Of a stretch of 64,000 bases of DNA, positions 46,185-52,031 are shown in pieces (the first letter of the stretch is position 1; each line of letters opens with the position of its first letter). Both the position numbers and the translations under genes were made by a program. The notes under the pieces are model-generated. The model saw nothing but the letters and a program-made list of their open reading frames with translations. It had not been told where the DNA came from and did not search any database. This DNA comes from Candidatus Omnitrophota bacterium (GTDB lineage: Bacteria > Omnitrophota > Gorgyraeia > Zapsychrales > Fredricksoniimonadaceae). The stretch lies in contig JAUSEK010000001.1 in NCBI GenBank assembly GCA_030650275.1, forward strand, positions 101 to 64,100, read 5' to 3'.

Positions 46185-48792
<2,608 letters not shown>

Positions 48793-49079: not shown

Positions 49080-50291
49080 TCAACTTTCACTAACTCTAAA
49101 AGATCGTATTGAATTTATCTTTTCGTTTATTTTAAATGTATGCTCATCAAGATCGTTAACAAATTCCTCAATGCTATCTAATTCTTCATCTGTAAAGCTG
49201 CGGTGTTCATATCGCAACATTCCATTGATGAGTCCCAAGAGATCACTAAACCCATGTCTTTGATACGGCTCTAGCAACCTATCTTCGGCTTTTCTTTGCC
49301 AAAACATGTATGGGGGATTCTTTTTCTTGCTCAAGCTTATTTTTGCAGTACTTAACGCGTTGGTGAGGCGCCCGACCCTGAAAAGCACATAGAAAATAAT
49401 GTAACTGACACAATAATATTCCTTGTCTCTGCTAAGTCGGGTGAGCAATGCTTGAACGAATAATTCTCCGTCTTTCTCATCCCTGAAAGATTTAAATAAC
49501 TTAACTAATGCATCGCCGTTCTCAGACTGCACAGTTGCCCCTTGGGGATCATTTAATATTTCTTGCCGCTCTCCAGATTTACTACTCGTCCAACTATCCT
49601 GATAGATGCTTTTAATTTGTCTCCCTTGGCATAATGCGTATATACTACCCAACTCTCCTGATTGACGCCCGTATTTTTGATAACGACTAATTTCATCCTT
49701 AAGAGTAGCTGCCACTTTTCTTTCTATTTGATTTTGTAACTTATAGATTGCTTCCTCTGTTAATTTAATAGGTATAAATCTTTTCTTTTTATCTGATTTA
49801 AATTCAACGTTCTTTAGAATGCGTTTCTGTCCATATTGATCTACGAAAATTATGTCTGCTTTGAAATCCTTCCCTTCCTTGCAAAATGGTGGGCAAATCC
49901 AGAAATCTGCGTGTAGGTCGGTAGTCGCGCGTGGAGGAATAGGGTAGTCTCCGTGATATTCACTGTGCACATCTTTAAGCGATACATGTCCTTGATTTCT
50001 AGGCTTCTTGATGTAAACGTTTAAGATGCTAATCGGTTGGTCTGTTGGATTTGTTACGTACCAATAACCCACTATCTGCATGGCGGGTTTTTGATCACCG
50101 GTGCTCCCCATGTGCCACCAGTTAAATCTGTAATGAGGAAGGATGATTGGACGGTTTAGCCAATGCCTTATCCATGGGAATATGGCCCCTAATTTCTCCA
50201 ATATACTGTTCAGCGATGCCAAAGATTGACTGAGTATTCGAGCCCAAAACTTTACATCGCTATCTGTGTTTAAGTTATTATTTTGAGTCAT
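49080..50291 (-). CDS. orphan hypothetical protein (403 aa) in low-GC island
   Basis: Clean 403-codon ORF with GC of roughly 42% by eye versus about 58% in the flanks. No motif I can place; N-terminal half beta-rich, C-terminal half helical. Confidence 0.6.
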   Translation of the reverse strand: MTQNNNLNTDSDVKFWARILSQSLASLNSILEKLGAIFPWIRHWLNRPIILPHYRFNWWHMGSTGDQKPAMQIVGYWYVTNPTDQPISILNVYIKKPRNQGHVSLKDVHSEYHGDYPIPPRATTDLHADFWICPPFCKEGKDFKADIIFVDQYGQKRILKNVEFKSDKKKRFIPIKLTEEAIYKLQNQIERKVAATLKDEISRYQKYGRQSGELGSIYALCQGRQIKSIYQDSWTSSKSGERQEILNDPQGATVQSENGDALVKLFKSFRDEKDGELFVQALLTRLSRDKEYYCVSYIIFYVLFRVGRLTNALSTAKISLSKKKNPPYMFWQRKAEDRLLEPYQRHGFSDLLGLINGMLRYEHRSFTDEELDSIEEFVNDLDEHTFKINEKINSIRSFRVSES

Positions 50292-50554
50292 TCCGCCTTT
50301 AGTTCTTTGAACCGTTTCCAGGTATCTTATTTATTCGCTAATGATTCTGATGAAATGTACCCATTATGCCAGAAACAAAAACCCTCCGCAATTCATTAAA
50401 ATCGCATGGGTTTATATACAAATAGCCTCAAATCTAATTCAAATTCTGTCCTCCCAAGTACCGGTTCTGCCTCCATTGCCTAACATTGAATTGTTCAAAA
50501 ATAAATCCTCCCCGTCCTTACCCTATTCTCTCCTCTCCCATGTCGCAAGGGGTA

Positions 50555-50611
50555 GTTCAAGACCCCACTCACTCATAAAAAACTTATAGTAGAGTGTGTG
50601 GGGTCTTGAAC
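50555..50611. repeat. 20-bp inverted repeat (GTTCAAGACCCCACTCACTC / GAGTGTGTGGGGTCTTGAAC) with 17-bp AT-rich spacer
   Basis: Arms are reverse complements with a single mismatch; read directly. Confidence 0.55.
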
Positions 50612-50659
50612 GGTTTTGAGCGCTTTTGCCCAAAAACCCCGTGCAAATGGGAGAAAAAA

Positions 50660-50734
50660 GGGCACAAATTAGGCACAGATTTGTGCCTGATCTGTGCCCA
50701 AACTTGCGCCCTTGTTTGTGCCTAATCTGTGTCT
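50660..50734. repeat. array of GGCACA / TGTGCC heptamers forming nested palindromes
   Basis: At least six copies of the (A/G)GGCACA core in both orientations within 75 bp: GGGCACA, AGGCACA, TGTGCCT, TGTGCCC, then TGTGCCT-AATC-TGTGTCT. Confidence 0.55.
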
Positions 50735-51081
50735 ATTTTAGACTATAGCTCAAAGAAATAGTACCTACGATTATCTTTTTACATAACGAATTAGTAGGCC
50801 AACCCTTCTCCAGTCCGTATTTGAAGGTTAAGCGCCACACTTGTTGTTAAACAAGCAGAAACAAGCACTACGAGTACCTTTATACGCAACCTGGCCTTTA
50901 CACGGCTCACCACCTCTATGCCACAGTTCAGTTGAGGATTTTGCATGTTGCCCTCTCCTTTCCCGGACTGCGGAAGGGTTGGCGCTTGGCGATGTGCCAT
51001 TTATAGAATTTTAATGTTGTGAAAAGGGCTTTTGTCGAATTTCGAACCCGATGTCGGACATACGCAACGAAAATGCAATTC

Positions 51082-51492
51082 TTAGGGCTTTATCATCTGT
51101 TTTGTTTTTTGGATAACCTGGCTGACAAAAGCAATATAATCATCCGCTTCTTTCTTGGTGATCGTGCCGCCGGCATCGTAAAGGTCTTTATTACGCTTCA
51201 TCCGCATGGCATTGCCAACCGTAAAGACATCTGGATCGCCTAGAATTTCACTCAACTTAAGTAATATCTTAACATGATGCCCGGTCACGCTCCTGACCTT
51301 AACCCCGCCCTTCTTTGCCAAAATAGCCATGCCGATCTTGATCAATGCCTGATAACAATAGGTAAATTGGACTTCCCTAAAATGGTCTTTCTGGGCAATA
51401 TCCAGATCACGCATGGCGCTTTCAACATAACGGTCAATTTGGGCCGCCGTAAATTTAAACTTCTGAAAGAACTCCTGTTCAAATGAGATCAT
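51082..51492 (-). CDS. HEPN-domain protein (toxin partner of nucleotidyltransferase)
   Basis: 136 aa helical protein with R-x4-HH (RSVTGHH). Overlaps the upstream MNT gene by 4 bp (ATGA). Confidence 0.65.
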   Translation of the reverse strand: MISFEQEFFQKFKFTAAQIDRYVESAMRDLDIAQKDHFREVQFTYCYQALIKIGMAILAKKGGVKVRSVTGHHVKILLKLSEILGDPDVFTVGNAMRMKRNKDLYDAGGTITKKEADDYIAFVSQVIQKTKQMIKP

Positions 51493-52031
51493 ATGATCCT
51501 CACGGTTTTCTTGGATTCAATAGACTTTAAAAACGGATCCTTCCCTTTTTTATCATTGTACTCCTGAAGCGACATACTGACGGCATTAATGTCTCTTTGG
51601 GTAGACTTTTGCACCTGTGCAACCGCCTTTTGAAGTTCTACGGTACTATGATCTCCAACAACCAAAAAATCAATGTCGCTATGGGAATCCATCTTCTCCT
51701 GGGCATAGGAACCAAAAATAACGGCTTTTTTAATACCAGAAATAGTGCCAAGTGAAGTCTTTAATACCTGCTCCAGACCAATGGTCTTTAAAACGATGTT
51801 TTTATACTCCTTTAACAACGGAAAGCTCTTATTTAACGAATAATACCGCTGTTTGCCCTGCCAGCGGCTTTTTAAGAGGCCCTCTTTTTCAAGGACGATC
51901 AGTTTACGGGTCAAATTACCGCTCTCTGTATGGAGGATCCGGGCTAGGTCATTGACATAAACCTCAAACCCTTGTTGCAGCATGAAATAATTGAGGATTT
52001 GTTGAGAAACTTTAGAGCGCAGGCTGATCAT
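51489..52031 (-). CDS. minimal nucleotidyltransferase (MNT) with N-terminal winged-HTH
   Basis: GSYAQEKMDSHSDIDFLVV (GS...DxD) pol-beta NTase motif preceded by a wHTH-like segment; 180 aa. Confidence 0.75.
   Translation of the reverse strand: MISLRSKVSQQILNYFMLQQGFEVYVNDLARILHTESGNLTRKLIVLEKEGLLKSRWQGKQRYYSLNKSFPLLKEYKNIVLKTIGLEQVLKTSLGTISGIKKAVIFGSYAQEKMDSHSDIDFLVVGDHSTVELQKAVAQVQKSTQRDINAVSMSLQEYNDKKGKDPFLKSIESKKTVRII

Follow-up and report, generated by a model that had tools for sequence, protein, structure and literature searches.

What does a 403-aa protein without a recognizable domain do in a patch of foreign-looking DNA beside a toxin–antitoxin (TA) system? The question is raised by a 64,000-nucleotide stretch of a Candidatus Omnitrophota metagenome-assembled genome (MAG; contig JAUSEK010000001.1, assembly GCA_030650275.1), hereafter the window, in which a complete gene occupies positions 49080..50291 on the minus strand. 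Its open reading frame (ORF) is intact, begins with ATG and encodes 403 aa. An exact-sequence look-up identifies the product as MDO8674536.1 (Q7K71_00260), a “hypothetical protein” encoded on a contig of 66 kb from a Candidatus Omnitrophota MAG; FabZ, NusB, and RibH, the flanking proteins, likewise match that NCBI record. An earlier note, written from the DNA letters alone, had taken the protein for an orphan effector of a new defense or abortive-infection system. Our analysis points rather to a candidate single-gene modular defense or conflict protein, in which a conserved sensor/assembly core is joined to an exchangeable N-terminal output, and we see the balance for and against this reading as about even. 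The family to which the gene belongs is large, unnamed, and horizontally mobile, and the gene moves alone, into variable regions rich in TA, restriction, and defense genes.

A large and unnamed family

The protein is not an orphan. A word-indexed search returned 73 homologs at 47–92% identity, all unnamed and none with a precomputed Pfam domain, and when 1.84 billion cluster representatives were searched exhaustively with HMMER, 573 clusters (50% identity) matched at E ≤ 1e-3, 298 of them at E ≤ 1e-10. The family is spread over at least six phyla. Its close subfamily ranges across Omnitrophota, Alpha- and Gammaproteobacteria, Planctomycetia, Desulfobacteraceae, and Nitrospirota, the last three also figuring among the named hosts of close relatives together with Thiodiazotropha, Woeseiaceae, Sinimarinibacterium, Emcibacter, and a Rickettsiales MAG. 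The homologs are AT-richer than their flanks in 13 of 14 loci (GC of 0.40 vs. 0.62, 0.30 vs. 0.57, and 0.38 vs. 0.56, for example), which, combined with the patchy taxonomy, indicates repeated horizontal transfer.

Despite this size, the domain databases do not hold the family. The 403-aa protein matched no family of Pfam, NCBIfam, or PHROGs at E ≤ 1, and in PADLOC-DB v2.0.0 it drew a chance-level match to AriB only (E = 0.091, 10.9 bits). Sixty diverse members scanned singly have no Pfam family in common, and the only score among them is that of a TIR domain in one relative (P0159, described below). A sequence-profile search of the PDB likewise returned chance-level antibody matches only (E ≥ 0.19).

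A constant core behind a variable N-terminus

The AlphaFold2 model of the full protein (33 homologs in the alignment; mean pLDDT 82.7) bears out the two-part organization that the earlier note had proposed, with strands at residues 49–166 and helices at residues 188–402, and both peptides quoted there are present in the ORF. The model also shows an N-terminal helix at residues 9–45, which that description left out, and one small beta-hairpin among the C-terminal helices. The first part is an immunoglobulin-like (Ig-like) beta-sandwich (residues 49–166; 49794..50147, minus strand), modeled at a pLDDT of ~90 and marked by the motifs WWHMG...VTN...DQxGQ, in which W59, N81, and D151 are invariant or nearly so across the family. 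The second is a C-terminal all-alpha domain (residues 180–402; 49086..49754, minus strand), which contains the hairpin and the conserved motifs LKDExxRYxxxGRxxGxLGS, SENGDAL, EYYCVSY, and EKINSIRxxR. Conservation here centers on E200, R209, G212, G215, S216, R285, Y292, and Y297, with E200, G215, and Y297 invariant among 60 diverse members. The motifs are kept in relatives down to ~27% identity.

The fold search that the earlier note had proposed as a check gave a different answer for each part. Compared by Foldseek with the PDB and BFVD, the full model matched generic beta-sandwiches only (PCuAC, ApaG, MSP, and DUF4352/DUF5067-like proteins), over no more than residues ~49–166 and at 10–17% identity. 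The alpha domain, modeled alone from a 62-sequence alignment (pLDDT 93.2, pTM 0.91), had no match in the PDB better than E = 0.31 (TM-score < 0.3) and none to an enzyme fold; what it did match were helical-repeat scaffolds throughout (designed repeats, ARM, and the ERAP1 C-terminal domain). The domain is confidently predicted, and its alpha-repeat-like fold has no solved structural relative. With no enzyme among the matches, a role in binding or sensing would fit it.

What stands ahead of this core differs from member to member. Among the 150 members with a complete N-terminus, 89 (~59%) have one or two predicted transmembrane (TM) helices before the beta domain, so that the earlier remark that the protein has no recognizable TM motif holds for the protein of the window but does not extend to its family. 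An excess of lysine and arginine follows the TM helix in 66 of the 75 single-TM members, so that under the positive-inside rule the core is assigned to the cytoplasm. The close subfamily (57–69% identity) contains both a 2-TM long form of 430–445 aa and the short form represented by the 403-aa protein, in which the first TM helix is missing and the second has decayed to an amphipathic helix. In the window this helix (residues 9–45; 50157..50267, minus strand) is modeled at low pLDDT as two segments, 9–37 and 39–45. It has a hydrophobic moment of up to 0.54 and a mean hydrophobicity of 0.1–0.3, and no TM segment is found in the protein, the highest 19-aa Kyte–Doolittle mean before the beta domain being 0.99. 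The alignment pairs this helix with the second TM helix of the long forms, and it takes the place of the variable N-terminal module, which in relatives consists of TM helices, a TIR domain, or an HNH domain.

The two enzymatic versions are found in relatives P0159 and P0204. In P0159 a TIR domain (residues 2–133; Pfam TIR_2 4e-19, PADLOC PDC-S66 1e-60, ThsB 1e-37) replaces the TM region, and the full core follows with all its motifs kept. This protein, whose host is a member of Capsulimonadaceae, occurs on three contigs from independent sources, including one of 140 kb and an NCBI MAG. In P0204 an HNH nuclease is fused to the beta domain alone, without the alpha domain. The beta domain is also found by itself in 28 of the 221 relatives retrieved, mostly proteins of ~170 aa that consist of one TM helix and the sandwich and end at the domain boundary. 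Searches with a beta-domain profile and with a 60-member profile revealed no further fusions among the matches listed, which were mostly known sequences. Across the family, then, the core of Ig-like beta-sandwich and novel all-alpha domain is constant, and the N-terminal segment is exchangeable. Modular immune proteins usually show just such a pattern, with one end of a constant scaffold exchanging known killing domains. The word “effector” in the earlier note does not sit well with the two conserved domains, which look more like a constant sensing/assembly core, with the N-terminus as the part that varies. Single-protein TIR systems with otherwise unannotated regions have been found to protect E. 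coli (PMC11350192).

Variation is also seen at the other end of the protein. Relatives P0086, P0090, and P0187 carry an extra C-terminal extension of 170–200 aa that is charged, coiled-coil-like, and without a Pfam or PADLOC match; in P0187 it stands in place of the alpha domain.

Genomic neighborhoods of the gene and its relatives

In 25 loci, ORFs lying up to 6 kb from the gene were called and compared all against all by clustering. No partner gene is conserved across these loci, and the only family that they share is that of the gene. An IS1595-type transposase was found at three of them, two of these three being copies of a single context. As no neighbor family recurs, the gene is a single-gene cassette, as the earlier note had supposed, and in the window a terminator-like hairpin separates it from the adjacent TA genes.

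Many of the neighbors that do occur belong to defense, restriction–modification (RM), or TA systems. At one locus (L006) the homolog has on one side genes matching PDC-S41 (4e-129) and HEC-07 (4e-133), a PLD protein, and Fic, and on the other a complete type I RM system. Elsewhere it adjoins a HEC-08 gene (1e-98; L027) or a gene for a 1620-aa helicase-nuclease matching PDC-S37 and Mokosh (L033), or has a Schlafen AlbA_2/PDC-S50 (SLFN-AlbA_2) gene two genes upstream, with an HSDR_N-AAA protein also encoded nearby (L013). A DUF4238 gene adjoins the homolog at L003, and a single DUF4238 protein is known to protect against T7 (PMC9122126). The homolog at L025 is flanked by HigB/HigA and a PemK/MazF module (MazEF), a PIN TA system adjoins the TIR fusion (L022/L023), and Mrr_cat adjoins the HNH fusion (L024). 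IS1595, VapBC, BrnTA, and Mrr are the neighbors at L008–L011, and transposases lie next to the gene at L007, L008–L011, and L027. At L034 and L035 the homolog lies directly downstream of, and nearly overlaps, a gene for a HipA-family kinase (HipA_C 9e-49).

A further context is that of P0222, a beta-only relative with 52% identity to the beta domain of the 403-aa protein. Its gene lies in the same orientation between those for HmaB (2e-127) and HmaC (3e-126), with gaps of 16 and 26 nt, and HmaA (4e-161) is encoded upstream. Genes embedded in Hma operons are enriched for known and new defense systems, and several families of Hma-embedded candidates (HEC) were validated by Payne and colleagues (bioRxiv 10.1101/2024.01.29.577857).

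A few details of these loci are worth recording. The Hma-embedded relative (L021, 6001–6561; MFA4888769.1) comes from a Candidatus Omnitrophota MAG and is a protein of 186 aa with a TM helix and the beta-sandwich only; it has no HEC or PDC match in PADLOC, and a TIR_2 gene is found further downstream. The HipA gene of L034 and L035 is the only immediate neighbor common to two different loci, and at both the homolog is called as two consecutive ORFs (L034 3747–4883, L035 3630–4846), by frameshift or assembly error. At L008–L011, all Desulfobacteraceae MAG or metagenome contigs, an IS1595-family transposase splits the homolog into a 288-aa N-terminal and a 113-aa C-terminal part (e.g. L008 939–1805 and 2982–3323), and this inactivated copy is found on 14 contigs.

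The window copy itself has a comparable setting. It has a GC content of 0.392 and shares an island of ~3.5 kb with a HEPN/MNT gene pair (HEPN 0.431, MNT 0.411; spacer 0.43), the rest of the window standing at 0.547, which agrees with the foreign composition suggested earlier. Its left-hand limit is formed by tRNA-Pro(CGG) and ligA, its right-hand limit by fabZ. The neighboring TA system named in the earlier note is real: the pair (51082..52031, minus strand; MNT 51489–52031, HEPN 51082–51492) is recognized by Pfam (NTP_transf_2 2e-9, HEPN 0.011) and by PADLOC as PDC-M05A (1e-39) and PDC-M05B (4e-13), of the candidate system PDC-M05. In the MNT protein an ArsR/MarR-like winged-helix region is fused N-terminally to the nucleotidyltransferase domain; the MNT gene overlaps that of HEPN by 4 nt, and NCBI labels the HEPN partner “hypothetical.”

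A proposed role in defense and its alternatives

Since relatives are recurrently found beside TA, RM, and defense genes, and the window copy lies in a low-GC island by a TA system, a role in defense or abortive infection appears, from these associations, to be the best available reading. How might such a protein work? The beta-sandwich/alpha core would recognize an infection cue and/or drive self-assembly, and the N-terminal module would execute the output, whether by membrane perturbation in the TM and amphipathic versions, by NAD+ cleavage or signaling in the TIR version, or by DNA cutting in the HNH version, with abortive infection or growth arrest as the end result. For the window copy the amphipathic helix of residues 9–45 would have to act on the inner membrane, and here the argument is at its weakest. 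A more ambitious proposal, which we hold tentatively and rate somewhat below an even balance, is that the protein may be the founding example of a widespread, unnamed family of single-protein immune sensors, whose Ig-like and previously unseen all-alpha folds would sense infection on the cytoplasmic side of the membrane and actuate interchangeable N-terminal killing modules (TM/amphipathic, TIR, or HNH), the sandwich also circulating alone as a TM-anchored module embedded in Hma.

Several observations weigh against a modular defense protein. The TIR and HNH fusions amount to one cluster each among the 150 matches listed, and the clade of the 403-aa protein has no TM, TIR, or HNH module, which makes its “output” conjectural. 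The conserved polar residues of the alpha domain (E180, E200, R209, S216, R285, Y292, and Y297) could mark an enzyme. None of the 5027 PADLOC models matches the 403-aa protein, nine relatives outside their TIR or HNH parts, P0222, or P0209, and no relative was found in cultured phages or plasmids (tblastn) or in an IMG/VR scan. The survey of homolog neighborhoods, another check proposed in the earlier note, came out mixed. TA, RM, defense, or insertion sequence (IS) genes lie within three genes at ~10 of ~19 independent loci, a tally without a background control, and the neighbors at L004, L019, L028, L031, and L039/L040 are unknown or housekeeping genes only.

The alternative that survives best, though we consider it unlikely, is that the gene is a mobile accessory gene unconnected with defense, coding for a membrane-associated stress or envelope protein or for a factor of addiction or stabilization of mobile elements, and that it hitch-hikes in variable, TA-rich regions. 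Such regions gather many kinds of cargo, and the loci with ordinary neighbors, the transposases beside the gene, and the missing PADLOC match would all follow naturally. However, the ThsB-like TIR and the HNH fusions are hard to square with an envelope or stress role, one relative is embedded within an Hma operon, and validated or candidate defense genes adjoin the gene in many independent loci.

Could the conserved core itself be the effector? In this reading, the chief alternative within a defense role, the alpha domain would be an enzyme or toxin of undescribed chemistry, the TM helices a mere anchor, and TIR and HNH occasional add-ons. The many polar residues of the alpha domain that are invariant or nearly so over 60 diverse members (E200/R209/S216/R285/Y292/Y297), its glycine-rich GRxxGxLGS loop, and the want of a recognizable effector at the N-terminus in the clade of the 403-aa protein are what one would expect of such a protein. 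The fold search, on the other hand, yielded helical-repeat scaffolds and no enzyme, TM+beta and HNH+beta proteins stand alone without any alpha domain, and known killing domains are exchanged at one end, the usual signature of an output position. We therefore regard an effector core as improbable too and continue to favor a sensing or assembly role for it.

A third possibility, that the 403-aa protein is an effector or accessory component of the adjacent HEPN/MNT system (type VII TA), is suggested by their position on the same strand of the same island, 790 bp apart, but is largely refuted and in our view highly improbable. The HEPN/MNT (NTP_transf_2/HEPN) pair was absent beside the gene from all homolog loci inspected, and clusters at ≥90% identity differ in size, with nine members for HEPN and two for the 403-aa protein (the window copy and P0001). 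Between the two units lies a long perfect hairpin followed by a U-run, resembling an intrinsic terminator (50649..50713, minus strand; found by folding and as repeats D3 and I3), and the fold of 50545–50745 on that strand is very stable (minimum free energy −91.8 kcal/mol, z = −9.2). From its sequence, the hairpin is predicted to insulate transcription of the HEPN/MNT pair from that of the 403-aa gene. Pair and gene share the island as separate cassettes and do not form one system.

Finally, a PCuAC-like copper chaperone or other extracytoplasmic Ig-like housekeeping binding protein can hardly be entertained, for although PCuAC domains are the best PDB matches of the full model (E ~1e-4, TM-score on target 0.5–0.58), the similarity is confined to the beta-sandwich at the low identity given above, the family shows no conserved His/Met metal-binding motif, its core is predicted to lie in the cytoplasm, and the distribution is patchy and the composition foreign.

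Comparison with known systems

DSR2 consists of SIR2 and HEAT-like repeats, and is a single-protein sensor-effector defense system in which an enzymatic killing domain is fused to a repeat-type sensor. Like DSR2 and the single-gene TIR systems of E. coli (PMC11350192), the present family is built as one polypeptide without a conserved partner, joins a constant, non-enzymatic Ig-like and alpha-repeat-like region to an N-terminal killing-type domain, includes a relative with a ThsB-like TIR (P0159), and is located in defense- and TA-rich variable regions. Unlike them, the 403-aa protein has no TIR, SIR2, or nuclease domain, and the core domains of the family have neither a sequence nor a fold match to those sensors.

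Another parallel is Cap15 of the cyclic-oligonucleotide-based antiphage signaling systems (CBASS), a membrane-disrupting abortive-infection effector made of two TM helices and a beta-barrel. Most members of the family, including the ~170-aa TM+beta-only proteins, similarly begin with one or two TM helices, behind which a small all-beta domain lies in the cytoplasm. The fold, however, is an Ig-like sandwich and not a barrel, there is no PADLOC match, no cyclase/CD-NTase Pfam family occurs in the neighborhood tables of the family loci, and the TM helices are lost in the clade of the 403-aa protein.

The Hma-embedded candidates and the PDC families of PADLOC (bioRxiv 10.1101/2024.01.29.577857) resemble the family in genomic position, both through the beta-only relative between hmaB and hmaC and through the full-length relatives that directly adjoin HEC-07 and HEC-08 genes. 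Yet no HEC or PDC hidden Markov model (HMM; PADLOC-DB v2.0.0) matches the family members scanned outside their TIR or HNH parts, and so the family is not among the candidates already described. With PCuAC, ApaG, and DUF4352/DUF5067 proteins the resemblance lies in the overall beta-sandwich topology of residues 49–166; the identity of 10–17%, the lack of common motifs, the predicted cytoplasmic location, and the added alpha domain set the family apart. Judged by HMM, fold, linkage to a cyclase, and TIR, it belongs to none of the described systems.

If the proposed immune-sensor family is real, it would represent a sensor architecture new to the bacterial pan-immune system, found mostly in uncultured bacteria and absent from Pfam, NCBIfam, and PADLOC, and would give a function to the small TM+beta proteins embedded in Hma systems. 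The series of TM, TIR, and HNH swaps on one scaffold would be handy for asking how a common sensor is coupled to different killing mechanisms. Should the inference of defense fail, there would still be a large, mobile domain family deserving a name. Many comparable candidates exist; the size of the family, its clean swap series, and an alpha fold without a solved relative are what favor following this one up.

Other features of the island

The spacer between the two cassettes contains a second stable hairpin (50555..50611, minus strand), found by repeat search and by folding, with 20-nt arms that are 95% complementary. Both spacer hairpins were missed by a consensus terminator scan, and the GGCACA-rich hairpin arms are also directly repeated (50680–50696 and 50715–50731). 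Further along, a 69-aa ORF without a family match (50791–51000, minus strand) is enclosed in a 20-nt inverted repeat (50798–50817 and 50964–50983; 90% complementary, 146 nt apart). NCBI annotates nothing there, and the fold of this 201-nt region has z = −2.7. A small structured RNA, a remnant resembling a miniature inverted-repeat transposable element (MITE), and chance are all conceivable explanations.

At the left boundary of the island, as drawn from the GC profile, lies the tRNA-Pro(CGG) gene (48716..48792, minus strand; ARAGORN, Rfam 65.8 bits). An integrative element linked to this tRNA was considered and rejected: the island is on the 5′ side of the tRNA and has neither an integrase nor a tRNA-fragment direct repeat inside it, and is therefore not a classical element integrated at a tRNA 3′ end. 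The neighboring ligA, as called from its ORF (46701–48743, minus strand; GTG start, 680 aa), overlaps the 3′ part of the tRNA gene, and the true start of LigA is probably a downstream Met (“MHPPKAQKR...”).

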